DNA from: Candidatus Saccharimonadota bacterium
Lineage (GTDB): Bacteria > Patescibacteriota > Saccharimonadia > Saccharimonadales > UBA4665
Assembly (NCBI GenBank): GCA_002952755.1
Contig: CP025011.1
Span: 660,001-692,000, forward strand
Direction of reading: 5' to 3'
DNA: 32,000 nt
Each line of letters starts with the position of its first letter. The stretch's first letter is position 1. Under the pieces are notes generated by a model. That model made no database searches, was not told the DNA's origin, and was given only the letters and a program-made list of their open reading frames with translations. The translations under genes and the position numbers were made by a program. Positions 2,437-32,000 of the stretch are shown here, one piece after another.

Positions 2437-2508
2437 GCTGGGGATGAGGGATTCGAACCCCCGATCACGGGACCAGAACCCGTTGCCTTACCACTTGGCC
2501 AATCCCCA
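2435..2508 (-). tRNA. tRNA-Gln (anticodon CUG), CCA encoded
   Basis: Hand-folded cloverleaf. The acceptor stem TGGGGAT/ATCCCCA has U1-A72 and discriminator G73. The anticodon stem is ACGGG/CCCGT with loop TTCTGGT. The T arm is GGGGG-TTCGAAT-CCCTC. The gene ends in CCA at 2437-2435. Confidence 0.9.
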
Positions 2509-2783: not shown

Positions 2784-3899
2784 ATGTCAAAAAAAGTACG
2801 TCTATTTACGAGCGAGTCGGTTTGTGCTGGGCATCCTGACAAAATTGCCGATGCCATCTCTGATGCCATTGTCGATGCGGCTTTAGCGAGCGACCCTGAT
2901 TCCCACTGCGCCATCGAGACCGTAGCTGGAGCAAACCAGATTTGCTTGTTTGGTGAAATCAAAACCAAGGCAAAAATCAATTACGAGCAAGTGGCGCGCG
3001 ACGTAGTGAAGCGCTTGGGCTACACCAAGCCGGAGTGGGGATTTAGCCAGGAGTCGATCTTTAGTAATGATATCCATGAGCAATCGCCCGAGATTGCTAT
3101 GGGCGTGGATAATGACGGTGCCGGTGACCAGGGTATGATGTTCGGCTACGCCTGCAACGAAACGCCTGAGTTGATGCCGCTGCCGATCACCCTTGCGCAC
3201 GCGCTCACCAGACGGATCGACGAAGTCCGCGAGACGGGCGTGTTGCAGTGGCTACGCCCTGACGGCAAGTCTCAGGTGACGGTGCGGTACCAGGATGATA
3301 AGCCGGTAGCTATCGAAAAGTTAGTGGCTGCCGTTGCCCATAGCGAAGAAACATCTGCCGAAAGGGTCCGTGCCGATGTCATTGAACATGTGTTTACTCC
3401 GGTGCTTACCAAGTACGGCTTCGATCTGCCGAAAGATGCAGATATCGTAGTGAATGGTACTGGCCTATGGCATATTCCTGGCCCAGAGTCGGATGCTGGC
3501 CTTACTGGCCGCAAGATTGTAGTCGATACTTATGGTGGCTACGCTCGTGTGGGCGGCGGTGCATTCAGCGGCAAGGAACCCCACAAGGTGGATCGCTCCG
3601 GCGCCTATGCTGCACGCTATATTGCTAAAAACATCGTAGCCGCAGGTCTCGCCGATAAGTGTGAGGTGGGCCTTGCGTATGTTATCGGGCAGCCGTTGCC
3701 ATTGATGCAGACGATCGAGACCTTTGGCACCGCGACGGTAAGTGATGAAGAACTCCATGCCTTTAAGGATCAACTCATTGACACCTCAGTAAAGGGCATT
3801 ATCGAGGCGCTCGATTTGTGCCGTCCGATATACAGCGCCACCAGCGCCTACGGGCACTTCGGCAAAGAGGGCCTTCCCTGGGAAAAGATTAAAAAATAG
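2784..3899 (+). CDS. metK: S-adenosylmethionine synthetase
   Basis: The start MSKKVRLFTSESVCAGHPDKIADAISDAIVD was chosen over the track start at 2745. GAGDQGMMFGYA, DAGLTGRKIVVDTYGG and GGGAFSGKEPHKVDRSGAY are classic MetK motifs. Confidence 0.95.
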   Translation: MSKKVRLFTSESVCAGHPDKIADAISDAIVDAALASDPDSHCAIETVAGANQICLFGEIKTKAKINYEQVARDVVKRLGYTKPEWGFSQESIFSNDIHEQSPEIAMGVDNDGAGDQGMMFGYACNETPELMPLPITLAHALTRRIDEVRETGVLQWLRPDGKSQVTVRYQDDKPVAIEKLVAAVAHSEETSAERVRADVIEHVFTPVLTKYGFDLPKDADIVVNGTGLWHIPGPESDAGLTGRKIVVDTYGGYARVGGGAFSGKEPHKVDRSGAYAARYIAKNIVAAGLADKCEVGLAYVIGQPLPLMQTIETFGTATVSDEELHAFKDQLIDTSVKGIIEALDLCRPIYSATSAYGHFGKEGLPWEKIKK

Positions 3900-4764: not shown

Positions 4765-4888
4765 CCTGCACCACCTGGATTGGGCTGGTGAGGGTGCCGG
4801 TTGTTTTCGGCGACCCCAGTTTCGTGATTGCCACGACTGTTAAAACGAGCAAAGTAAAGAGCGTGATAGTACTTATGATTTGTTTCAT
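4751..4888 (-). CDS. 45-aa ORF encoding a signal-anchor-like peptide, overlapping the PEBP start in another frame
   Basis: Hand translation gives MKQIISTITLFTLLVLTVVAITKLGSPKTTGTLTSPIQVVQDGTQ*. It has one hydrophobic helix. Its stop (4753-4751) lies 11 nt inside the PEBP ORF. It is below the track threshold. Confidence 0.3.
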   Translation of the reverse strand: MKQIISTITLFTLLVLTVVAITKLGSPKTTGTLTSPIQVVQDGTQ

Positions 4889-4973
4889 GTGTAGCTCACA
4901 GTATAGAGTTGTCGTTTGCATGCGTCAAATGCTCTATCGGCTGAAACAGTGTATATAATTGCCTTTTGCTTAG

Positions 4974-22694: not shown

Positions 22695-23042
22695 ATGGAT
22701 GAAAGTTCTGAATTACTCAACCAATCGGAAACACAGATGCGTAAAGGCATGCTTACGTACTGTGTATTACTGCTGTGCAAGGATGGAAAAGTGTACAGCT
22801 CGGAGATCATCCGCGAGCTGCGCGCAGCGGAGCTGATCGTGGTGGAAGGCACCCTCTATCCGCTGCTTAGCCGCCTAGCGCGCGATAAGCTCATGGCCTA
22901 CGAGTGGCAGGAATCCGGGCAAGGCCCGCCGCGCAAATATTATTGGTTAACCGAGGACGGGCATGCGCTCCTCAAAACACTGCAGACGACCTACCACCGC
23001 CTGCATACATCGGTCCAACGACTCGAGAAAGGCAAATCATGA
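22695..23042 (+). CDS. PadR family transcriptional regulator
   Basis: 115 aa. GTLYPLLSRLARDKLMAYEWQESGQGPPRKYYWLTEDG is the PadR winged-helix signature. Confidence 0.85.
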   Translation: MDESSELLNQSETQMRKGMLTYCVLLLCKDGKVYSSEIIRELRAAELIVVEGTLYPLLSRLARDKLMAYEWQESGQGPPRKYYWLTEDGHALLKTLQTTYHRLHTSVQRLEKGKS

Positions 23043-24370
23043 ACGAAGTTACAAACATTCACCTGGGGCGTCAGTCGTTTACGATTGCTGCCGACGCATA
23101 TAAAACATTGCAGGCCTATCTGCATGAAATCAAAGGGCAGGCAGGCGATAGTGGCGCTGAAGTAGCCAAAGAAGTCGAATCGCGAATGGCTGAATTGCTT
23201 ACTGAACACGGCATCACGACGCACAAGGTAATCTTGGCCGAAGATATCACGTATCTTAAAACGCAATTGGGCGAGCCGCGTGATTTTAAGACAGATGACG
23301 GCGAGGAACTCCCGAGTTCCGAATCGAGCGAGCCACATGGCAAGCGCCTTTTCCGTGACACTGAGCACGGCATGATCGCCGGTGTGGCGGCCGGTCTTGG
23401 CGCTTTCTTTGGTTTGCCGGCAATCGTGTTCCGTTTGCTATTTATTGTACTGCTCATACCTGGCGGAACGAGTATTTTAATCTATCTACTATTATGGCTG
23501 CTCGTCCCGGAGGCGACAACGCCGAGCGACCGTCTGCGCATGCAGGGCAAAGCGGTAACTGTAGACAGCCTAAAAGAAGTGATCGACCGTGCTGATGTGC
23601 AGGGTGCCGCGCAGCGTGCGAGCAAGATTTTCGGCGGGGCCGGTGAGACCTTCGCAAAATTGCTGCTCGGGATTATCGGCGTCGGTTTTATCCTTAGCGC
23701 GTTTGCACTGCTTACTGGCGGGGCAACGGTAACGAGCTTTCTGTTGGGTCACGGCTTAAAAGTCGGCAGTACTACTATATTCCCTGTTGGCAAAAAGGAG
23801 ACGTTAATCGTCATCTGTGGCCTCATCGTAGTTGCGCTTATTGCCAGTATGTTTGCGGTGGTTGGCAAGGCGATGTTCAGCCGAAAATGGCGACTTCCCA
23901 CCTGGGCAGCAGCGGCAATGGCGCTAACGTTTATTACTGCAGCTTCTGTTGGGGTGGCGCTCGGCTTCCAGACTGCCCCGGCTTGGCAAGCGCGGTATAG
24001 GAACAGTATGCATAGCCAGCTGTACAGTACCGCTCCATTTACCGAAGCGCGCTTTATAGCTCCAGATATCCCCGTCCTCTTCCAATTCGATCAGCACTAC
24101 GGCGTCGAGATCAAAACCGCTAGCAACATCGACACCAAGACAATTACAACAAACGTCAGCAAGGGCGTCCTCATGATCGACACCAGCCACTTGGTAACAA
24201 CTGACAGATGCGGTTTCCTATGTCCTGATGGTAACCGGAACGTTGAGATTGTGATCCATTCACCTGTGCCGCTCAATAGCACCACGGGCGTCGATCCGGG
24301 GAGCCCTCTGATGTTTAGCACCACGCCAGCCGAAGAACAACCGGCCGCAAAGCCCTCTATCGGTAATTAG
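23039..24370 (+). CDS. PspC domain-containing membrane protein
   Basis: Its start overlaps the PadR stop (ATGA). The PspC domain is LFRDTEHGMIAGVAAGLGAFFGLPAIVFRLLFIVLL...LLWLLVPEA. Further TM helices follow. Confidence 0.8.
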   Translation: MNEVTNIHLGRQSFTIAADAYKTLQAYLHEIKGQAGDSGAEVAKEVESRMAELLTEHGITTHKVILAEDITYLKTQLGEPRDFKTDDGEELPSSESSEPHGKRLFRDTEHGMIAGVAAGLGAFFGLPAIVFRLLFIVLLIPGGTSILIYLLLWLLVPEATTPSDRLRMQGKAVTVDSLKEVIDRADVQGAAQRASKIFGGAGETFAKLLLGIIGVGFILSAFALLTGGATVTSFLLGHGLKVGSTTIFPVGKKETLIVICGLIVVALIASMFAVVGKAMFSRKWRLPTWAAAAMALTFITAASVGVALGFQTAPAWQARYRNSMHSQLYSTAPFTEARFIAPDIPVLFQFDQHYGVEIKTASNIDTKTITTNVSKGVLMIDTSHLVTTDRCGFLCPDGNRNVEIVIHSPVPLNSTTGVDPGSPLMFSTTPAEEQPAAKPSIGN

Positions 24371-24854
24371 TGAAGCTTAGTGGGAAGTCAAATTCCTGCG
24401 TGCGCAGCAGTTGCATGACGGCCTGAAGGTCATCTTTGCTCATGCTCATCACACGCACCGCATCACCCTGAATCTGTGATTTGACCTTCGGGTAATGGTC
24501 GCGGATCAGGGCGGTGATTTTCTTAGCCTTCTCCTGGTCTAGACCTTGCTTGAAGGGGACTTCCTTAGTGGTTTTGAGGTTCGATTCAATCTGTTCTTTA
24601 CTTGTGTCCAATACTTTTTGACTCTGATTGCGAGCAGCAAGCTTTTTGCGCACAATGTCTAAAATAGCATCGATCTGCCATTCACCATTACCGGTAATTT
24701 TGAGTCCTGTTTTGTCGCTACCCAGCCACTCGATGCCCGCTGGCGTACCTTTAAAGTCGTAGCGCGAGGTCATTTCACGCTCGGTTTGATCAAAGACGTT
24801 ATTCATCTCTGCCTTGTCATACTCGCTTACTACATCAAAAGAAAACTGTGCCAT
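24357..24854 (-). CDS. yajQ: YajQ-family nucleotide / cyclic-di-GMP-binding protein
   Basis: MAQFSFDVVSEYDKAEMNNVFDQTEREMTSRYDFKG...QIQGDAVRVMSMSKDDLQAVMQLLR aligns along its full length with the YajQ family as I recall it. The ATG at 24854 is preferred to 24899. Confidence 0.85.
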   Translation of the reverse strand: MAQFSFDVVSEYDKAEMNNVFDQTEREMTSRYDFKGTPAGIEWLGSDKTGLKITGNGEWQIDAILDIVRKKLAARNQSQKVLDTSKEQIESNLKTTKEVPFKQGLDQEKAKKITALIRDHYPKVKSQIQGDAVRVMSMSKDDLQAVMQLLRTQEFDFPLSFTNYR

Positions 24855-24861
24855 GACGTTC

Positions 24862-24870
24862 ATTATACCA
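24862..24870 (-). promoter_or_regulatory. extended -10 promoter of yajQ, predicting a leaderless mRNA
   Basis: The minus strand reads TGgTATAAT, then 7 nt (GAACGTC), then the ATG at 24854. No SD is present. Confidence 0.45.
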
Positions 24871-24983
24871 GCAACCTGTGTCATTCCACCCTCATCCACC
24901 TCACCCGGAATCCATGTCTCCCACTAAGAACGGTATCCACAAAGCTAACTCTGCAAACTAGATTTCCTTAGTATTATCCGTCC

Positions 24984-25200
24984 CCGCGATTTACGCTTCT
25001 TCCTTGTCACTTTTTGTCCCGCAAAAAGTAACCAAAAACTCCCCAAGGCAAACGTAAAACACTACTGGAAAATACCCCGCACAGCATCTTCGCTGCGGAA
25101 CTCGCCCTTGATTGGGCTCAAACAGTCCTCGCTCGTGCAGATGCTGTGCGGGGTATTTTCCAATCGGTTTTACTCCAGGCCCCGAACCCCGTCGGAGGTG
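24984..25200 (+). repeat. copy 1 of an unclassified ~215-bp structured element
   Basis: It aligns block by block with the reverse complement of 25356-25570. It contains short hairpin 25009-25029 and a long perfect 23-bp hairpin, 25067-25089 paired with 25139-25161. Confidence 0.7.
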
Positions 25201-25256
25201 GAAAATGAATAATTGTAAGCGGGTGCAGTATATATATGAGAAAAGGAATGGAATGG

Positions 25257-25278
25257 ATTCCGGCTCAGAGGCCGGAAT
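25257..25278. other. central GC-rich hairpin (possible bidirectional terminator) between the two inverted element copies
   Basis: ATTCCGGC-TCAGAG-GCCGGAAT. It belongs to the same hairpin family as 10855-10874. Confidence 0.5.
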
Positions 25279-25355
25279 GACAAAGGCATAGCTTAAAGAA
25301 ATAGATCCTTATTTCCTTCTATCCTACATATTTACTGGATACCTCCCAACCGCAG

Positions 25356-25570
25356 CCCCACCTCTCCGAGTAGTTCGGCCGTAATGGAAAACTGATTAGC
25401 AGAAGGAACTAACATACTGGATAAAGACGAGGACTGTTTGAGCGTAGCGAGTTCCGCAGGCTCAGTATGTTAGTTCCTTTTGCTAGTAATGTTTTTCATT
25501 TTAGGCCGAGAGGTTTTTCGGTTCCTTTTTTGCGGGAAAAAAGGAACATTACAAGGATTACAATTCGCGG
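25356..25570 (-). repeat. copy 2 (inverted) of the unclassified structured element
   Basis: It contains short hairpin 25521-25547 and a long perfect 17-bp hairpin, 25403-25419 paired with 25463-25479. The stem extends to 25 bp if two G-T pairs are allowed. The loop blocks are identical to those of copy 1. Confidence 0.7.
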
Positions 25571-25755
25571 TTACAGAATTTACTGAGGGGGTTTGATGAG
25601 GGGGATGGTGCCTTTAGGAAGAGGGAGTTGGGGTTGAGGAGCCTTAAGGTATATGACAAGGGGTGGCGGATAGTATTCATATAAAAGATACATTCTGGAT
25701 CAGGGCGAAATGGTAGGAGCATTACTTTACCGACCTACTCTCTGGTAACAGATTT

Positions 25756-25764
25756 TGATATAGT
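25756..25764 (+). promoter_or_regulatory. extended -10 promoter of pheS with a very short leader or none
   Basis: TGaTATAGT is followed by 9 nt and then the ATG at 25774. No convincing SD is present. Confidence 0.4.
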
Positions 25765-25773
25765 AGAGATAAG

Positions 25774-26829
25774 ATGAACTATACCAATCCCCGCATTGCT
25801 GAAGTTGCCGTTCAACTGCATACGCGCTTGAGCGAATCGCAAGACCCGGCTGAAATTTTAAAGGCCACCGAACTACGCGCGCTCTATGCCGAAATTCCGA
25901 CATTGCCGCCTGAGGAGCGAGGTGCATTCGGCAAAGAGATAAATCTTCTTAAATCAGACTTAGAGCGGGCTATTGCTGAGCGGCAAGAAACCGCCGAAGC
26001 GTTGCCATCGATCGACATTACTGCGCCATTTGACACGAACATTGCTCCAGATAAACGGCCGAAATTACTCGCCGCCGACAATGGCAGCGCGCACCCTCTT
26101 ATGACTGAGTTGGACGCCATTGTCGATATTTTCTATCGGATGGGCTTTACGGTAGCCGAATCGCGTCAATTGGACGACGAGTATCATATGTTTACCAGCC
26201 TGAATTTTCCCGAAGGTCATCCGGCACGTGATGACTACGACACTTTCATGACTACTCAAACCGACAAAAACGGCCACCCGCTCATTGCTCCAGCCCATAC
26301 CAGTACCATGCAGAATCGCATGCTCCAAAAGTACCGATCTAATCTTGGGGCGGGCAAGCCGATTGCCATACTCGTCCCTGATCGCGTTTTTCGGAACGAA
26401 GATCTTGACGCCCGTCACGAGCACACTTTCTATCAATACGAAGGGATGTACGTTGACAAAGGGGTGCATGCCGGTCATTTGGTGGCGACACTTAAAGCAT
26501 ACTTTAAGGCTTATTTTGAGCGCGATATAGAAGTGAAAATTCAGCCGTTCTACTTTCCATTCACCGAGCCAAGTTTTGAATTTGCTGCGAGCTGCCCGTT
26601 TTGTGAGGGCAAGGGTTGTAACATATGCAGCTATAGTGGCTGGATTGAGCTCGGCGGTTGCGGCATGATTCATCCGAACGTACTACGTATGGCCGGTATT
26701 GACCCAGCCGAGTACACTGGCTATGCCTGGGGTTTTGGAGTGGAGCGTATGGTAATGGTCAAGCGGGGTATCGAAGATATTCGCCTGTTTGAAAGTGGCA
26801 AACTTGAATTCCTAAAGCAGTTCGCCTGA
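25774..26829 (+). CDS. pheS: phenylalanine--tRNA ligase alpha subunit
   Basis: 351 aa. HPLMTELDAIVDIFYRMGF, FPEGHPARD, FRNEDLDARHEHTFYQYEGM and GFGVERMVM are class II PheS motifs. Confidence 0.95.
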   Translation: MNYTNPRIAEVAVQLHTRLSESQDPAEILKATELRALYAEIPTLPPEERGAFGKEINLLKSDLERAIAERQETAEALPSIDITAPFDTNIAPDKRPKLLAADNGSAHPLMTELDAIVDIFYRMGFTVAESRQLDDEYHMFTSLNFPEGHPARDDYDTFMTTQTDKNGHPLIAPAHTSTMQNRMLQKYRSNLGAGKPIAILVPDRVFRNEDLDARHEHTFYQYEGMYVDKGVHAGHLVATLKAYFKAYFERDIEVKIQPFYFPFTEPSFEFAASCPFCEGKGCNICSYSGWIELGGCGMIHPNVLRMAGIDPAEYTGYAWGFGVERMVMVKRGIEDIRLFESGKLEFLKQFA

Positions 26830-26845
26830 AGAAGAAAGGATATAC

Positions 26846-27247
26846 ATGCCAACTACTCCTAAGAACAAAACGGCCCTTACTCTCGAAGATTCAGCCTTGT
26901 GGCAGCTCGCCAAGAGTATGAGCGAGGCCGTGCGTAAGGTTGTCGCTGCGGTTCCTTATGAAGATCATTACACTTTCGCGTCAACCGCCATCCAGAACAG
27001 TACGCTCACCGCATCAGATATCGCGTTTGCCGTAGGCAAGGGGTCTGATGCCTCTCTATTCGACTATCACTATGCTCGTGGCCACCTATTTACAGCCAAA
27101 GGTTTGCTGCTCATGGCGCAGGATCTTAAGATTATCGCCATACCCAAGAGCTTGCTGAATGATTTCGACAAGCTGCAGCTACTCATCGAGCATGAAATTG
27201 ACAGGCTTGAGCAATCAGATGCCACAAAAAAGGAAGGCAGTAGATAG
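26846..27247 (+). CDS. four-helix-bundle protein (23S rRNA intervening-sequence protein family, TIGR02436-like)
   Basis: 133 aa. The pattern P.E..Y.....(Q)....S...IA...G.......DY.YARG...E....L.MAQDLKII loosely matches this family. The match is diverged, so the call is tentative. Confidence 0.55.
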   Translation: MPTTPKNKTALTLEDSALWQLAKSMSEAVRKVVAAVPYEDHYTFASTAIQNSTLTASDIAFAVGKGSDASLFDYHYARGHLFTAKGLLLMAQDLKIIAIPKSLLNDFDKLQLLIEHEIDRLEQSDATKKEGSR

Positions 27248-27249
27248 AT

Positions 27250-27711
27250 ATGGCAGAGCCGACGCTCTTTGACAAGATTGTTACCGGGACGATTCCTAGC
27301 TTTAAGGTTTGGGAAGACGACCAGTATCTAGCCTTTTTAACGCCATGGCCGAATACGCCAGGCTTTACCGTGGTCGTACCTAAAGTCAATCCTGGCGATA
27401 ATTATATTGATGTTGGCGATGCTGCCTACACCGGTCTGCTTTTGGCGGCCAAAAAAGTTGCCGTTGGTCTTGGGAAAGCGTTTGACGTTACCCGTGTTGG
27501 TTTAGTAATCGAAGGCGAGGGCGTGCCGCATCTGCATGTCAAACTCATTCCGATGCACGGCCAAAGTGACGGCCGCCATTCCCACGCTAGCCATAGTGAA
27601 TTTTATGAGCAATATGCCGGCTATCTGACCACCATCGAGGGGCCGCGTATGAGCGATGACGAACTAGCAACAACCCAACAGAAAATCATAGAGGCTGTAC
27701 GTGAAAATTAG
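27250..27711 (+). CDS. HIT (histidine triad) family protein
   Basis: 153 aa with the triad GVPHLHVKLIP. The N-terminus LFDKIVTGTIPSFKVWEDDQYLAFL is typical of HIT/Hint proteins. Confidence 0.85.
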   Translation: MAEPTLFDKIVTGTIPSFKVWEDDQYLAFLTPWPNTPGFTVVVPKVNPGDNYIDVGDAAYTGLLLAAKKVAVGLGKAFDVTRVGLVIEGEGVPHLHVKLIPMHGQSDGRHSHASHSEFYEQYAGYLTTIEGPRMSDDELATTQQKIIEAVREN

Positions 27712-30262
27712 TCTAAACACCATCAAATATCTTAACGAGCACTACCACTCGGCAGGCGACCCTGCACCGGATGGTGCCGACGCGTTAATCCAGAAAATTG
27801 GTGCCCAGCTGGGTGCTGTCGAGGAAATCATACCATTCGGTAAGCGCTTCGAAGGAGTGGTTATCGCTCGAGTCGTTTCTTGCATCGATCATCCGGATTC
27901 CGACCATCTCCATATTTGTAAGATCGACGATGGCGGCCAGACTGAGGGCGTGGAGCGCGACGAACATGGCCATGTGCAAGTGGTTTGCGGCGCGCCAAAC
28001 GTCCGCGAAGGACTCACGGTTGCCTGGCTGCCTCCCGGCGCAACAGTGCCCGAGTCGTTAAACGACGCCGAGCCATTTGTACTGTCGGCGCGGCCCTTGC
28101 GGGGTGAGATGAGCAACGGGATGCTGGCAAGCGCCCGCGAACTAGCGATTAGCGACAGCCACGAAGGCATTTTGGAAATCGACGGCGACATTGCGCCGGG
28201 TACGCTTTTCGTTGATGCTTACCATTTGCGGGATGATCAGATTGTCGACATAGAAAACAAAATGTTCACGCACCGACCAGATTGTTTTGGGTATCTTGGC
28301 GTAGCGCGGGAGCTGGAAGGTATCCAGGGAAGGGCATATAAGAGTCCAGAATGGTATCGCATGGACCCCGACTTTCCTGGGATAGAAGCTGAAGCGTTAC
28401 CCTTGGAGGTACGTAATGAGCTGCCAGATCTGGTACCTCGTTTTACTGCCATCGCCATGCGTGATGTCACTGTCGGCCCCAGTCCGGTGTGGTTGCAGGT
28501 GGACCTTGCTCGACTAGGCTTACGCTCCATTAATAATATCGTTGATTACACCAACTGGTACATGATGCTTACCGGCCAGCCGCTTCATGCCTACGATTAC
28601 GACAAAGTCCGCGCACGAAGCGAGGGTGATGTGGCTACGATCATGGTCCGCAAACCAAACGAGGGTGAAAAAATAACCTTGCTGAATGGCAAAGAGATTG
28701 CACCTCGCCAGGACGCCATTATGATCGCCACCGATACTATGCTGATAGGTGTCGGCGGGGTAATGGGCGGCGGTGACACCGAGGTGGACATGCATACCAA
28801 GAATATCATTTTGGAATGCGGTACCTTTGACATGTATTCGATTCGCAAAACGAGCATGGCGCACGGCGTGTTTAGTGATGCTGTCTCGCGGTTTAACAAA
28901 GGTCAGAGTCCTTTGCAAAACCTGGCTGTGCTTTGGAAAATTATGGACCAGATCCGCGGCAATGCCGGCGGCAAAGTAGCAAGTCCGGTCATCGACATCA
29001 GGCACTTGCCTGACGGGGCTTGGGAGCGGGGGAATATTCATCCGCCAGTAATCGTCACACCTCAGTTTATAAACGATCGACTTGGCTTGAGTCTATCTAT
29101 CGAAGCCATCGAGGCATTGCTCGTAAATGTTGAGTGCAAGGTAGAAGTACATGATGGCCAGTTAACGGTTATGGCACCCTTTTGGCGTACTGACATTGAA
29201 ATACCAGAAGATGTTGTCGAAGAAGTTGGGCGGCTGTATGGCTATGATCATCTGCCGTTAGCGTTGCCGCACCGGGATATCACGCCTGCAGATAAAAACG
29301 AAATGTTCGAGAAGAGGACGCGCGTGCGCCAGGTTCTCGCTGCTGCAGGCGCGAACGAAATGCTCAGCTACGCCTTTGTACACGGCAAATTACTCGATAG
29401 AGTCGGTCAACAACGCATGAACGCGTATGAATTGAGTAATGCGCTCAGTCCTGACTTACAGTACCTTCGATTGAGCCTTACGCCAAGTTTGCTAGACCGG
29501 GTGCATGCCAATATCAAAGCGGGCTACGATCAATTTGCATTGTTTGAAATGAACAAGACCCATTGCGTAGGCATACAGGATCCAAGCGAGCCGGATGTGC
29601 CGCTAGAAGTGCTCCGTCTTGGATTGGTCGTAGCAATGAATGATAAGTCGGCTGCCCAAAGTGTGCATGGTGCACCGTTTTACCAAGCAAAGCGTTACCT
29701 GGAAGAGGTGACACTGGGCAGCATTCGGCAATTGGTCCCGCTCAAAGACTTTGAGTTTGGTGAAGATATCTGGGCCCGCGAACTATGTGCGCCATATGAG
29801 GCGGGCCGTAGTGCGGTTATTATGCAGGATGGTATGGTGAAAGGCGTTGTTGGCGAATTTCGCTCAAACGTCCGAAAGGCACTGAAACTTCCTGCTTTTA
29901 CGGCTGGATTCGAACTTTCGTTAGATATGTTGCCTGTAACTTCAGGTGAAAGCTACACGCCCTTGCCACGCTTCCCAAAGGTAGAGCAGGACATTTGCTT
30001 AAAAGTGTCTGCCGATAAGACCTACCAGGAAGTGTTCGATTTGGCTTGGGACAGTATTGGTGGGGTATTGCCAGAAACAGCACTCGCCACACTGAGCCCT
30101 GTCGACATTTATCAGCGCGATGACGATCCCAGCCATCGGCAGATCACATTGCGCCTGAGCATTGCCAGCTACGAACGCACGCTCACCGACGAAGAAGTGA
30201 CCAAAATACTCGACCACGTTGCGCTCACCGCAGCTGAAAAGCTCAACGCCGTACGTATCTAA
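27701..30262 (+). CDS. pheT: phenylalanine--tRNA ligase beta subunit
   Basis: 853 aa. The GTG start overlaps the HIT gene by 11 nt. The tRNA-binding, B3/B4, B5 and C-terminal FDX-ACB-like regions are recognisable (for example HICKIDDG and FWRTDIEIPEDVVEEVGRLYGYD). Confidence 0.9.
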   Translation: MKISLNTIKYLNEHYHSAGDPAPDGADALIQKIGAQLGAVEEIIPFGKRFEGVVIARVVSCIDHPDSDHLHICKIDDGGQTEGVERDEHGHVQVVCGAPNVREGLTVAWLPPGATVPESLNDAEPFVLSARPLRGEMSNGMLASARELAISDSHEGILEIDGDIAPGTLFVDAYHLRDDQIVDIENKMFTHRPDCFGYLGVARELEGIQGRAYKSPEWYRMDPDFPGIEAEALPLEVRNELPDLVPRFTAIAMRDVTVGPSPVWLQVDLARLGLRSINNIVDYTNWYMMLTGQPLHAYDYDKVRARSEGDVATIMVRKPNEGEKITLLNGKEIAPRQDAIMIATDTMLIGVGGVMGGGDTEVDMHTKNIILECGTFDMYSIRKTSMAHGVFSDAVSRFNKGQSPLQNLAVLWKIMDQIRGNAGGKVASPVIDIRHLPDGAWERGNIHPPVIVTPQFINDRLGLSLSIEAIEALLVNVECKVEVHDGQLTVMAPFWRTDIEIPEDVVEEVGRLYGYDHLPLALPHRDITPADKNEMFEKRTRVRQVLAAAGANEMLSYAFVHGKLLDRVGQQRMNAYELSNALSPDLQYLRLSLTPSLLDRVHANIKAGYDQFALFEMNKTHCVGIQDPSEPDVPLEVLRLGLVVAMNDKSAAQSVHGAPFYQAKRYLEEVTLGSIRQLVPLKDFEFGEDIWARELCAPYEAGRSAVIMQDGMVKGVVGEFRSNVRKALKLPAFTAGFELSLDMLPVTSGESYTPLPRFPKVEQDICLKVSADKTYQEVFDLAWDSIGGVLPETALATLSPVDIYQRDDDPSHRQITLRLSIASYERTLTDEEVTKILDHVALTAAEKLNAVRI

Positions 30263-30429
30263 CTTCTGTTCTAGAAGCGACGTCGTCATACCGGACTCGA
30301 TCGCTGCCCGAATACAAGGACGGCGAGGGGGCTCCCTATGACGGGATCGGTAAGACGATCAACGATGCCGAGTATTCTATCCGCCTTTTACATAGCTGTT
30401 AGCGGTCGGCTAACGGATCAAAGTGCCGC

Positions 30430-30807
30430 CTATGCTGTATGTACGTGCAACCACTGCACAATCGCAGGAATATCTAACTTGTCGGTAGCTATTTTTACCG
30501 CAAAGTCTTCAAGTTCACCTAACTTAGCCTTAAAGAGAACGCCATTAATTTCTAAGAGTGTTAGCCCTGCAAGCATAGCCGTACGTTTATTGCCGTCCAC
30601 ATAAGGATGATCAGCAATAATGCCGCGAATCATTGCTGCAGCCTTATCAATAAGGCCAGGGTACAGCTCTTCGTCGAAAACATTTTGAGTTTGTGCGGCA
30701 ATTGCAGCCTCCAGCCTGCCAAGATCTCGTAAGCCTATGCTACCGCCTGTAGCTTCGACAACGAGGGAGTGTAGTTCAAAGAGTTGCTCGAGGGATAAGA
30801 TATTCAT
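30430..30807 (-). CDS. doc: type II toxin Doc (Fic-fold, death-on-curing family)
   Basis: 125 aa with the Fic/Doc motif HPYVDGNKRTA. It overlaps the upstream antitoxin gene by 4 bp. Confidence 0.85.
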   Translation of the reverse strand: MNILSLEQLFELHSLVVEATGGSIGLRDLGRLEAAIAAQTQNVFDEELYPGLIDKAAAMIRGIIADHPYVDGNKRTAMLAGLTLLEINGVLFKAKLGELEDFAVKIATDKLDIPAIVQWLHVHTA

Positions 30808-31025
30808 CGCTTTGCGAGATTATCAAAATCTTTCTGGTAATCGCTAAGGATTTTTTTAGCCGTGGCTAGGACCTGCTGGTCCTCGCTATTCTTATTATGA
30901 AGAGGACGAACGATTACTTCAACTTCATCGCCGAAAGCGATGTTCTGTCTTTTAAGATCTTTAGCAGGGATGGTTACGCCGCCACTCGAACCTATTTTTA
31001 TAACTTTTTGTATACTTTGAATCAT
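30804..31025 (-). CDS. AbrB/MazE/SpoVT-fold antitoxin (Phd-equivalent partner of Doc)
   Basis: 73 aa. VIKIGSSGGVTIPAKDLKRQNIAFGDEVEV is a swapped-hairpin AbrB-type DNA-binding domain. Confidence 0.8.
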   Translation of the reverse strand: MIQSIQKVIKIGSSGGVTIPAKDLKRQNIAFGDEVEVIVRPLHNKNSEDQQVLATAKKILSDYQKDFDNLAKR

Positions 31026-31026
31026 A

Positions 31027-31060
31027 GATATATTATAACAACGTTATAATATATCGTCCA
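31027..31060 (-). promoter_or_regulatory. toxin-antitoxin promoter overlapped by a 13-bp perfect palindrome (putative operator); predicts a leaderless mRNA
   Basis: GATATATTATAAC (31027-31039) pairs with GTTATAATATATC (31043-31055). On the minus strand: TGGACG, a 17-nt spacer, TGtTATAAT, then 6 nt to the ATG at 31025. Confidence 0.5.
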
Positions 31061-31271
31061 GGATAAAATGTGCATGGCTGAAAGCATTATTCGAGGAGAA
31101 AAAGATGTAACCTCCCTATAATGCCTTTAGGGCTCAATCCGCGGCAACTATCGTAATGATTTCTTGTAATACTTCTTCGTAAATAGAATCATTTAAGGAT
31201 TACTGGGCTCCCGTCATTGACTCCCGGACATTCTTGGGGCATCATGTGAGAATATCAAAGCGGGAGGGTAG

Positions 31272-32000
31272 ATGTCAGAGCAACTTCTTACGCCGTACAT
31301 CGGACGAAATAATGGACGAATCCTCGCCCCAGACCCTAATGGTCCTGAATGGCAGCGAGAAGCAGCATGTCAGCCTGCAGTTGTGGAAAACGGGCCTGGT
31401 TATACTATGCTGTTCCGCGGTATCCCGACTCGCGAGTTTGCCGAACCGGGAAAATATAGATCAAGCATCGGGCTAGCAGATAGTAACAACGGCATCGACT
31501 GGGTTATTCGAGACGAGTCCCTTGAGATCCGGCATTTTCCAGAAGCACACGACCTAGGGGAAGAAGATGCAGGGGTAATACAGATAAGCCCTAATAGTAA
31601 TAGATATGCCGTAACATGGAATAATGCCACTTATGGGGAAGATGGCAGAATACGCGTGGGCATCGGGGGTGCTATCGTAAAAGACAACTTCGAGACCGTT
31701 GAAAGTCAGACTCCTGTCATACTAGAATCGCTCCGACCTGGCTGGATGAGAGCCAAGGGTCTTGCTCTCTTTCCCGAAGAACTCGCTAATGGCAACAGGC
31801 CCTTTTTTGTTACGCTAGGCGCAGATGGACCGTATGATCTTATTGCCTATGATGAAGACCACTCTTTAGATGACATATTCCGGCTTGGTGAATCACCAAG
31901 CATCATTACCCCAGAGGATGTAGCAAGGATGTATGTTGAAAATATATATTTGCCTAACCTCGAAGAAGAAGTAGCTAGCGGAGGCCTCTTTAGGCGTTTT
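31272..32000 (+). CDS. GH130/DUF377-like beta-propeller glycosidase-related protein (3' end beyond the window)
   Basis: Hand-translated frame, open for 243 codons to the window edge and absent from the track because it has no stop. A GGGAGG SD lies 5 nt upstream. PDPNGPEWQREAACQPAVVENG...YTMLFRG...SSIGLADSNNGIDW resembles the GH130 N-terminal blades. Confidence 0.55.
   Translation, partial: MSEQLLTPYIGRNNGRILAPDPNGPEWQREAACQPAVVENGPGYTMLFRGIPTREFAEPGKYRSSIGLADSNNGIDWVIRDESLEIRHFPEAHDLGEEDAGVIQISPNSNRYAVTWNNATYGEDGRIRVGIGGAIVKDNFETVESQTPVILESLRPGWMRAKGLALFPEELANGNRPFFVTLGADGPYDLIAYDEDHSLDDIFRLGESPSIITPEDVARMYVENIYLPNLEEEVASGGLFRRF

Follow-up and report, generated by a model that had tools for sequence, protein, structure and literature searches.

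What is the block of DNA which separates the divergent yajQ and pheS genes of a Candidatus Saccharimonadota bacterium? The window, that is, the whole stretch of 32,000 nucleotides analyzed here, had been the subject of a sequence-only reading in which a gap of about 920 bp was noted between a yajQ-like ORF and pheS. The divergent arrangement and the gap were borne out by the match to PF04461 and the ORF coordinates (Table 1). Two diverged, inverted copies of one structured element had been recognized in the gap, and three explanations were offered: a pair of structured RNAs, a cruciform- or hairpin-forming DNA element, and a protein-binding regulatory region common to both operons.

Table 1. 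Features of the yajQ-pheS interval and its flanking genes (positions are those of the window)
Feature	Position	Strand	Sequence and basis
yajQ (DUF520/YajQ)	24357-24854	minus	PF04461, E 7e-53; flanking gene, outside the element
Left arm	24966-25202	motif as written (GCGGAACTCGC..GCTCAAACAGTCC) on plus; inferred folding strand minus	right-arm alignment, folding z, mismatch asymmetry
Left outer short T/A hairpin (P0)	25006-25032		GTCACTTTTTG-TCCCG-CAAAAAGTAAC, then AACCAAAAAC; inverted repeat I23
Left long hairpin	25057-25171 (arms 25057-25089/25139-25171)		I1, 33 nt, 88% complementary
Left invariant apex	25093-25131	plus	CTGCGGAACTCGC-CCTTGATTGG-GCTCAAACAGTCCTCG; exact pattern match, 0 expected by chance
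Dyad middle	25203-25355		about 150 bp, no cargo gene; small hairpin at ~25255-25279 and 28-codon ORF with Shine-Dalgarno-like GGAGGTG
Right arm	25356-25588	motif as written on minus; inferred folding strand plus	left-arm alignment, folding, mismatch asymmetry
Right long hairpin	25388-25494 (arms 25388-25419/25463-25494)		I2, 32 nt, 84% complementary
Right invariant apex	25428-25459	minus	CTGCGGAACTCGC-TAC-GCTCAAACAGTCCTCG; exact pattern match
Right outer short hairpin (P0)	25521-25547		GTTCCTTTTTT-GCGGG-AAAAAAGGAAC; I17, 11-bp perfect stem
pheS	25774-26829	plus	flanking gene, outside the element

The dyad of two diverged inverted arms spans positions 24966 to 25588 (623 bp), and each arm, about 230 bp in length, consists of one short T/A hairpin and one long hairpin. 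Read on opposite strands (left arm plus, right arm minus), the two arms align at 72% column identity, which agrees with the proposed paralogy of the two copies. When 24966-25056, the outer module, was aligned with 25495-25588 in reverse complement, the score was 54; shuffled sequences scored 15.7 +/- 2.7, and none of 500 reached that value. Both of the short hairpins pointed out between yajQ and pheS are present as inverted repeats. The arms fold far better than shuffled sequences, with z-scores of -5.3 to -7.7 as RNA and of -6.5 and -7.6 as DNA (left arm, -7.3 and -7.7 as RNA and -6.5 as DNA). The secondary structure of both copies is under constraint, as the earlier reading had it. On the other hand, the homology said to continue in blocks outward from the dyad (24855-24965 versus 25589-25773) is at chance level, since 203 of 500 shuffles score as high.

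The left long stem is mostly copy-specific and its sequence was found nowhere else in the window, while the right long stem is unrelated to it. No match was found when the stem sequences were considered as guides for other sites in the window. The bases of the long hairpins read GTAAAAC/GTTTTAC and GAAAAAC/GTTTTCC. Despite these unrelated stems, the apical blocks of 13 and 16 nt are 100% identical between the two arms, which no shuffle matched. The covariance model R1 matches both apices, the left one at 25081-25144 (49.3 bits, E 5.5e-16) and the right one at 25415-25471 on the minus strand (60.8 bits, E 3e-20). The identity of the apices between the arms is a key detail that had been overlooked. 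In independent Logan assemblies, the window sequence breaks at 25503 and 25535, before and inside the right short hairpin. The claim that the gap has no credible ORF was nearly right: the longest ORF inside the dyad has at most 39 codons, but a 28-codon ORF (25205-25291, plus strand) starts at GGAGGTG-N4-ATG. This small ORF has no Pfam match, and no counterpart was seen in the middles of other close dyads. The idea that dyads have a conserved small ORF between their arms, prompted by this ORF and by analogy with smalltalk, was thus rejected.

Is this element present in the relatives of the bacterium? Five orthologous loci (L123-L127) were compared. In two Saccharimonadales relatives (L123 and L124; pheS 77% identical) having the same gene order as the window, PadR-PspC-YajQ followed by PheS-HIT-PheT, the yajQ-pheS spacer is only 68 bp and lacks the element. 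The element is also absent from the 125-bp spacer upstream of pheS in L126 (pheS 80% identical), where a Ser_hydrolase gene replaces yajQ, and from the 143 bp present upstream of pheS in L125, while in L127 yajQ and pheS are separated by other genes. The covariance model found zero copies anywhere in these five loci. Since the empty sites come from genomes whose pheS proteins are 77-80% identical, the element termini are approximate. Judging from this comparison, the yajQ-pheS block is a lineage-specific insertion and not a conserved spacer.

Is the element known? In Rfam 15 at gathering thresholds, the whole window gave only a tRNA (2438-2508), and the best sub-threshold match in 24800-25850 was 24.4 bits against a cut-off of 80. 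No Rfam family, including T-box, riboswitches, 6S, SRP, tmRNA, RNase P, ribozymes, and HEARO, reached its gathering threshold, so that the earlier failure to match the block to any known RNA held up. Rfam searches of eighteen related loci and of one Gallionellaceae copy likewise gave nothing at the element, and six-frame translations of the element gave no family in Pfam or NCBIfam. A full-text literature search with the core sequences (both strands, as DNA and RNA, long and short) returned unrelated primer matches or nothing, and searches by keyword were fruitless as well. The element family is apparently undescribed.

In a collection of one genome per species, the pattern GCGGAACTCGC-N(0-25)-GCTCAAACAGTCC matched at least 120 DNA stretches from at least nine phyla. 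Among the matches listed, the hosts belong to Patescibacteria, Beta- and Gammaproteobacteria, Bacteroidota, Lachnospiraceae, Coriobacteriia, Nitrospirota, Gastranaerophilales, Spirochaetota, and Desulfobacterota. Every listed motif match tops a hairpin whose stem is locus-specific. The universal part of the apex is AACTCGC-(GC-NNN-GC mini-hairpin)-GCTCAAACAG, extended in the window to CTGCGGAACTCGC...GCTCAAACAGTCCTCG; its full conservation was imposed by the search pattern, by which real variation was lightly sampled. Variants of the apex include an A to G change in L014 and a shortened core in Ralstonia and Parabacteroides. Within the limits set by this pattern, a core of ~20-30 nt is conserved to a degree that normally only rRNA, tRNA, and universal protein-binding sites show, which would imply a conserved partner protein. 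Four base pairs adjacent to the apex covary with 4 to 6 pair types each; none of 500 shuffles reached the observed covariation score, and slid controls were much lower. The variable, covarying hairpins below this apex come from at least 120 species-level genomes. In Gallionellaceae, Nitrospirales, Saccharibacteria, Prevotellaceae, and Parcubacteria, 85-100 nt separate the P0 module (xCTTTyTTG-loop-CAArAAAGTAACCAAA) from the apex, and the module was also found in Ralstonia and Parabacteroides. Zero copies were found in 2.9 million viral contigs, phage records, and E. coli genomes, and plasmid records had variant cores only, in six records of which four are replicons of 1.8-2.5 Mb.

Among the matches listed, at least ten genomes contribute two or more contigs each, and one Bacteroidaceae MAG has three near-identical copies (L077, L097, and L108), all close to contig ends. 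A scan of a single metagenome with the outer-hairpin pattern for sister copies in the same genome gave a chance match only, in a coding region. Some copies in the same genome (L095 versus L106; L032 versus L040) have the apex and the inner arm in common, while their outer arms are unrelated yet perfectly paired, which is not predicted by simple copy-and-paste. In the family as a whole, rapid evolution of the stems contrasts with an unchanging apex. Separate REP-like GTAGGTTGGGTTAGC hairpins adjoin some of the Gallionellaceae copies as distinct units.

The copies typically occur as pairs, but also as singles, and the paired ends always face each other. Close facing pairs, 160-430 bp apart, were found at about a dozen loci of Beta- and Gammaproteobacteria, Bacteroidota, and Patescibacteria. 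In wider pairs, with 1.2-3.5 kb between the arms, the enclosed cargo is McrB + McrC, DUF4357, DUF2971, an 8xMP membrane protein, an independent IS, or smalltalk. The middles of the other dyads contain either unrelated sequence (100-370 bp) or cargo (1.2-3.5 kb). The only transposase found between arms, an IS4-like DDE transposase fitting snugly into L014, was rejected as an autonomous partner, since perfect 22-bp inverted repeats of its own mark it as an independent IS insertion. All-against-all clustering of the neighboring ORFs of 120 loci revealed no common protein family that might represent a linked enzyme, and the largest cluster (six loci) consists of a spurious ORF that runs through the element. 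No direct repeat or target-site duplication was recognizable at 24966/25588 or at the ends of the Gallionellaceae dyads, the termini being approximate. Many loci have a single unpartnered hairpin, in some cases in-frame within a gene: the IleRS gene in three Saccharibacteria species (L013, L031, and L117) and the SHMT gene in a Patescibacterium (L087). PDB alignments show these copies as insertions of ~65 amino acids in IleRS and ~30 amino acids in SHMT. The inferred folding strand is antisense to the mRNA in the IleRS copies and sense in the SHMT copy. With respect to their flanking genes, 14 single copies are co-oriented, 16 anti-oriented, 5 divergent, and 5 convergent, showing no orientation bias.

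Which strand folds, and is it DNA or RNA? In the motif orientation, the arm mismatches comprise 66 A.C versus 27 G.T (p = 6e-5), 82 C.T versus 16 G.A, and 19 C.C versus 0 G.G. This asymmetry means that the tolerated G.T, G.A, and G.G mismatches sit on the strand complementary to the motif. Once perfect pairs were peeled off, a triloop was left at 80 of the 124 apices; on the complementary strand, 69 of these 80 read GNA, corresponding to the d(GC-GNA-GC) minihairpin. This minihairpin is unusually stable as DNA. The mismatch asymmetry and the GNA triloops together suggest that folding takes place on the strand opposite to the written motif, probably as single-stranded DNA. The strand asymmetry and the triloops are not wholly incompatible with RNA.

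One alternative is that each arm is a structured non-coding RNA gene, with transcription of the pair starting either in the middle and running outward or at the flanks and running inward. The product would work in cis or in trans, perhaps by sponging up a protein or by serving as a processing/stability element, with its apex bound by a conserved protein or RNA. Covarying stems with invariant loop nucleotides are found in many functional RNAs, the RNA folding z-scores (-5.3 to -7.7) are consistent with this possibility, and tolerance of G.U and G.A on one strand is equally expected of RNA. Moreover, bacterial multi-copy sRNA families exist, such as FopS in Bacteroides, which is Bacteroidaceae-specific and GibS-like (PMC11697453). 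FopS itself was considered because of the Parabacteroides locus; no link to the element was found in its published description (PMC11697453). However, no sigma-70-like promoter and no convincing terminator were found within 24800-25800, the single copies show no orientation bias, and the folding strand is antisense in IleRS but sense in SHMT. In addition, the element is missing from the orthologous locus of relatives, it has zero Rfam family matches, and its apex has GNA triloops and not the GNRA or UNCG tetraloops typical of RNA. RNA genes are therefore a rather unlikely explanation. Of the earlier idea of a pair of structured RNAs, two paralogous copies of one structured element survive, while their being RNAs is disfavored.

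A second alternative is that the dyad is a recombination or integration site, namely a landing pad or a cassette boundary resembling attC or Xer-dependent pdif sites, at which a site-specific recombinase captures, excises, or inverts genes between two facing sites. Integron integrases recognize attC in the form of a folded strand, by its asymmetric bulges and variable terminal structure, and the site considered here would likewise be a folded strand having both. The ends always face each other, the middle is empty or holds unrelated accessory or defense-type genes, an IS, or smalltalk, and no target-site duplications were seen in the window and Gallionellaceae dyads (with approximate termini). 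Nevertheless, no recombinase gene is consistently near the copies, and a fixed landing pad does not account for the unpartnered hairpins, some of which are in-frame in genes. The entire dyad is missing from the orthologous site of relatives, indicating that the dyad itself, and not its content alone, was gained or lost. Overall, this alternative is improbable.

Lastly, a cis-regulatory region common to yajQ and pheS, working through leader RNAs or operator DNA, is very improbable and appears to be effectively refuted by the empty orthologous sites: the block does lie between two divergent starts, the inferred folding strand of each arm points to the adjacent gene, and pheS in other bacteria is often under structured leaders, but relatives with identical synteny make do with the 68-bp spacer, the same element adjoins unrelated genes in every arrangement across nine phyla and sits inside ORFs, and Rfam shows neither a T-box nor a ribosomal-protein leader.

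It is fairly probable that the block is a cargo-less copy of a non-autonomous selfish DNA element, mobile or formerly mobile, which was inserted into the short yajQ-pheS spacer. The best reading is a MITE- or RPE-like element with structured inverted ends. Of the three explanations offered at the outset, the cruciform- or hairpin-forming DNA element is thus closest to the evidence. The argument that the copies are too diverged for a MITE or IS origin does not hold, as the family behaves as a mobile, multi-copy element. The unit would be the dyad with its two inverted ends of ~230 bp. From the outer tip inward, each end is made of the short T/A hairpin with a AACCAAAA linker and then the long hairpin, whose stem may vary freely provided that pairing holds, with the invariant asymmetric motif at the tip. 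The functional form would be a folded single strand, most likely of DNA; the left arm would fold on the minus strand, and the right arm on the plus strand. A putative trans-acting protein, either a dedicated or a host enzyme, may recognize the asymmetric apical loop (GTTTGA opposite G, a TT bulge, and the GNA triloop). Paired ends would enclose and carry unrelated genes, while a lone hairpin might insert by itself, even in-frame into coding DNA. The element may still be moving at present.

How does this putative selfish element compare with known systems? Rickettsia palindromic elements (RPEs) are also non-coding, multi-copy, intergenic palindromic hairpin repeats of ~100-150 bp, occur in-frame in essential protein genes, whose products thereby gain additional peptide loops, and have no known transposase. 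In-frame palindromic insertion is seen in IleRS and SHMT, and the window copy is intergenic. RPEs are not known outside Rickettsia; the present family differs in its occurrence in at least nine phyla, its invariant apex, its outer short-hairpin module, and its facing, gene-carrying dyads. NCBIfam includes some RPE-domain models, and no reading frame of the element matched NCBIfam or Pfam. MITEs, including MITE-flanked composites, resemble the element in being small and non-autonomous with inverted ends, in being multi-copy, in their presence or absence between relatives, in pairs that bracket cargo genes, and in breaking assemblies. The 623-bp dyad is short and has inverted ends, and at least ten genomes have several copies each. 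No parent IS with the same ends was found in the neighboring ORFs of the 120 loci, the transposase in L014 being independent. Unlike those of MITEs, the ends are ~230 bp in length and each is internally folded, and the stems of one dyad can be unrelated; while MITE families normally stay within one lineage, this apex is conserved from phylum to phylum.

REP/BIME/REPIN sequences, associated with RAYT of the IS200/IS605 type, are similar intergenic hairpins, often in inverted pairs without target-site duplications, and are thought to act as folded single-stranded DNA, as proposed for the element. However, REPIN stems are conserved and the loop varies, which is the reverse of the element, and neither a GTAG-type head nor a RAYT gene near any copy was found. 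The integron attC sites share a conserved structure with largely variable sequence, one folded strand, asymmetric bulges, a variable terminal structure, and an association with promoterless accessory-gene cassettes. In contrast to attC, the conserved part of the element is at the apex and the copies form facing pairs, not a direct array; there are no RYYYAAC/GTTRRRY boxes at the stem base, and no integron-integrase family recurs among the neighbors. Finally, the parvovirus-type hairpin ends of single-stranded DNA replicons offer a purely geometric analogy, with inverted ends folding on the strand with the outward 3′ end, triloop-capped arms, and cargo between the ends. The element differs in that no Rep or HUH gene and no viral copies were found, and plasmid records have variant cores only.

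A bolder proposal, which is rather unlikely at present, is that the family represents a so far unrecognized, cross-phylum class of gene-cassette vehicle with facing single-stranded DNA hairpin ends. The invariant asymmetric apex would be read by a putative recombinase or a universal host enzyme, which would move the vehicle itself, solo hairpins, and enclosed accessory or defense genes without target duplications. In this view, the arms that are unrelated yet perfectly paired within one genome would be due to fast concerted evolution of the stems, by hairpin-templated repair or copying. If true, such a vehicle would be a third solution beside the integron attC cassettes and the Xer-dependent pdif modules.

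If the family is indeed undescribed, it would be a selfish or cassette-type element common to minimal-genome Patescibacteria, gut Bacteroidota and Lachnospiraceae, and environmental Proteobacteria and Nitrospirota. The element breaks assemblies, gives rise to spurious ORFs, adds peptide loops to essential enzymes, and enlarges intergenic regions, which are then mistakable for regulatory RNA. Cultured carriers, including Parabacteroides distasonis, Ralstonia, Zhongshania aquatica BJYM1, Zooshikella ganghwensis DSM 15267, Uliginosibacterium, and Niveibacterium, make the element tractable. Since the element brackets defense genes, it may be a marker, or a cause, of gene-exchange hot spots.

It was found that the 919-bp gap between the divergent yajQ-like ORF and pheS holds two inverted arms, each with a short T/A-rich hairpin and a long hairpin (see the table). 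The plus strand of 24966-25202 can be aligned to the minus strand of 25588-25356. For the outer module, 24966-25056 was compared with reverse-complemented 25495-25588 and scored 54, while shuffled sequences scored 15.7 +/- 2.7 and none of 500 was as high; the similarity of the inner flanks is marginal (6/500 shuffles as high). Farther out, 24855-24965 and 25589-25773 are similar at chance level (203/500). Thus, the dyad extends from about 24966 to about 25588. The inverted two-arm dyad noticed in the sequence-only reading is real, while the blocky homology which it had extended outward toward both genes is not above chance.

Whether taken as RNA or as DNA, and on either strand, each arm folds far better than shuffled sequences (z -5.3 to -7.7). 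The stem sequences of the two long hairpins are unrelated to each other, while their tips share the CTGCGGAACTCGC and GCTCAAACAGTCCTCG blocks with zero differences; the spacing of the blocks is 10 nt on the left and 3 nt on the right. A covariance model of this apex recovered both arms (60.8 and 49.3 bits), and nothing else in the window scored above 11 bits. No target-site duplication was visible at the ends of this dyad or of Gallionellaceae dyads. The dyad middle contains a 28-codon ORF (MNNCKRVQYIYEKRNGMDSGSEAGMTKA, 25205-25291, plus strand) with a GGAGGTG-GAAA-ATG start context. Its product matches nothing in Pfam, and the middles of other close dyads have no similar small ORF.

Features of the window and of compared loci
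Feature	Sequence	Position	Strand	Remark
tRNA gene	window	2438-2508	minus	Rfam, 61.7 bits; ordinary context gene
PspC-domain membrane protein	window	22904-24370	plus	ordinary context gene
yajQ-like ORF	window	24357-24854	minus	PF04461, E 7e-53
-10-like box region	window	24855-24884	minus	
Short T/A-rich hairpin, left arm	window	25006-25032		
Long hairpin, left	window	25057-25089/25139-25171		
Dyad middle	window	25203-25355		about 150 bp
Long hairpin, right	window	25388-25419/25463-25494		
Short T/A-rich hairpin, right arm	window	25521-25547		
pheS	window	25774-26829	plus	divergent from yajQ-like ORF
Fic/DOC protein	window	30430-30807	minus	ordinary context gene
-10-like box region	L123 (relative)	2933-3000		also upstream of pheS in relatives L125, L126
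IS4-like IS between arms	L014	1938-3440		DDE_Tnp_1, 440 aa; own perfect 22-bp inverted repeats
Smalltalk protein gene (NF033879) between arms	L129, Parabacteroides distasonis NZ_OY725754.1	1412-1990		exactly between facing copies
REP-like hairpin	L078 (Gallionellaceae)	~2900-2990 and 4800-4900		both sides, inverted orientation; also L005, L016, L039, L113

Is this apex confined to one lineage? The pattern GCGGAACTCGC-N(0-25)-GCTCAAACAGTCC, scanned in one genome per species, matched in at least 120 stretches of DNA. Among the matches listed, the hosts are Patescibacteria (Saccharibacteria, Parcubacteria, Gracilibacteria, Falkowbacteria, Uhrbacteria, and Paceibacterota), Beta- and Gammaproteobacteria, Bacteroidota, Lachnospiraceae, Nitrospirota, Gastranaerophilales, Spirochaetota, Desulfobacterota, and Actinomycetota (Coriobacteriia and one other genome). 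In every listed locus the motif is a hairpin tip on a locus-specific stem, and the gap between its two blocks is a mini-hairpin of variable length. Across 84 non-redundant instances, the four base pairs adjoining the motif each show 4 to 6 standard pair types; none of 500 shuffles had as high a covariation score, and slid-partner controls were far lower. A short outer hairpin followed by AACCAAAA, 85-100 nt from the apex, recurs in Gallionellaceae, Nitrospirales, Saccharibacteria, Prevotellaceae, Parcubacteria, Ralstonia, and Parabacteroides. Ralstonia and Parabacteroides retain only AACTCGC-TTC-GCTCAAACAG as the invariant part, with the variable stem directly adjoining, so this is the truly universal core.

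At least 10 genomes among the matches listed have two or more element-bearing contigs, and one Bacteroidaceae MAG has three near-identical copies, each near a contig end. No copies were found in 2.9 million viral contigs, phage records, or E. coli, and plasmid records have variant cores only (6 records, 4 of them 1.8-2.5-Mb replicons). In many Gallionellaceae copies (L018, L078, and others), one frame across the whole element is open for 70-90 codons (e.g. ...RRLRNSRYALKQSSPKSPDQPPLLGGAQG...), which is a recurrent source of spurious "hypothetical proteins". Gallionellaceae copies are often bordered, just beyond their outer end, by a REP-like hairpin (GTAGGTTGGGTTAGCG...CGCGTAACCCAAC) that is distinct from the element.

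With the motif read as written, paired copies face each other as a rule, plus copy before minus copy. Among the matches listed, about a dozen loci in four phyla have close pairs 160-430 bp apart, about nine further loci have pairs 1.2-3.5 kb apart, and the exceptions are two weak divergent and two tandem cases. In a close pair of Sulfuricella (L090), the stems differ between the arms, as in the window. The longer pairs flank unrelated genes, namely McrB plus McrC, a DUF4357 protein, a DUF2971 protein, an 8xMP membrane protein, proteins without a Pfam match, an IS4-like IS, and a smalltalk protein gene. The IS is inserted in the small palindrome of the middle of a Sulfuricella dyad whose left arm has the core variant GCTCAGACAGTCC. 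The smalltalk gene has amidase, HU, and DUF4248 surroundings, and its replicon is labelled a plasmid yet bears prmA. No recurrent neighbour protein family was found among the listed loci.

Single hairpins are also found in-frame within essential genes, namely within the IleRS of three Saccharibacteria species (core translated as AELAALKQSS) and, in the opposite orientation, within the SHMT of one Patescibacterium (EDCLSEASSAV). Alignment to solved structures revealed clean insertions of about 65 and 30 residues, respectively. Single copies have no orientation bias to flanking genes (14 co-oriented, 16 anti-oriented, 5 divergent, and 5 convergent).

Copies in the same genome can share the apex and the inner arm and yet have outer arms that pair perfectly but are unrelated between the copies (L095 and L106, L032 and L040, L103 and L109). 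Rapid concerted change of both arms via hairpin-templated repair or copying would account for this. In the window, the variable stem segment is flanked by conserved sequence, so it is not target DNA.

Which strand folds? Mismatches were counted in 57 long arms (1853 paired positions) in motif orientation: A.C/C.A 66 versus G.T/T.G 27 (p = 6e-5), C.T/T.C 82 versus G.A/A.G 16, and C.C 19 versus G.G 0. Since the common mismatches become the least helix-destabilising G.T, G.A, and G.G on the complementary strand, folding seems to be selected on the GGACTGTTTGAGC...GCGAGTTCCGC strand. In the window, the left arm would fold on the minus strand and the right arm on the plus strand, and in each arm the short hairpin then lies at the 3′ end, which points outward. 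On the GGACTGTTTGAGC...GCGAGTTCCGC strand, 80 of 124 apices examined end in a triloop, which in 69 of the 80 is GNA closed by C-G (e.g. GC-GAA-GC, GC-GTA-GC), a classic DNA minihairpin of unusual stability. Variable helices of structured RNAs are usually capped by GNRA or UNCG tetraloops.

It is unlikely that the arms are a pair of structured-RNA genes. Folded single-stranded DNA is favoured over RNA by the GNA triloops, by the lack of any preference for one transcription orientation, and by the copies inserted in coding sequences. Moreover, the window region of the element has no sigma-70-like promoter or convincing terminator, and Rfam 15 has no match at the element in the window, 18 related loci, or one Gallionellaceae copy, in agreement with the mismatch to known RNA classes noted from the sequence alone. 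Six-frame translations matched no Pfam or NCBIfam family, and the core sequences retrieved only unrelated primers from the searchable literature; a description of the cross-phylum family was not found in these sources. It is also unlikely that the dyad is a recombination landing pad.

That the block is a regulatory region serving both divergent operons, which was also proposed in the sequence-only reading, is refuted by related Saccharimonadales. Two relatives whose pheS is 77% identical keep the order PadR-PspC-YajQ(-)/PheS(+)-HIT-PheT with a yajQ-pheS spacer of 68 bp, in a third (80% identical) pheS is preceded by 125 bp, and the covariance model found no copy of the element at these loci. 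The block appears to have been gained by insertion and not kept as a conserved spacer with a regulatory role. Two Logan contigs, independent assemblies of the same sequence (window 25503-32000 and 25535-29204), have their ends at the short hairpin of the right arm, either shortly before it (25503) or within it (25535). This is typical repeat or palindrome behaviour; the element breaks short-read assemblies.

The operon has a second variable insertion, since a 133-aa ORF between pheS and the HIT gene (26846-27247, plus strand; a weak PF05635 match, 23S rRNA-intervening-sequence protein, 20.5 bits, below cut-off) is matched in size and position by an ORF in relatives L125 and L126 and by none in L123, L124, and L127. 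In these Saccharimonadales, the start codons of yajQ and pheS are preceded at just 4-10 nt by -10-like boxes (TATAAT, TATACT, TATAAA), which suggests mRNAs with no leader or almost none. The ATGACA..GGGTGG motif that the upstream regions have in common may belong to a promoter of this lineage and not to the dyad.

The yajQ-pheS block belongs to the cross-phylum family. In the best-supported reading, it is probably a cargo-less copy of a non-autonomous element that resembles MITEs or RPEs, has structured inverted ends, and was inserted in the yajQ-pheS spacer. The unrelated stems with identical tips, which the sequence-only reading missed, make the finding more interesting than was first described.
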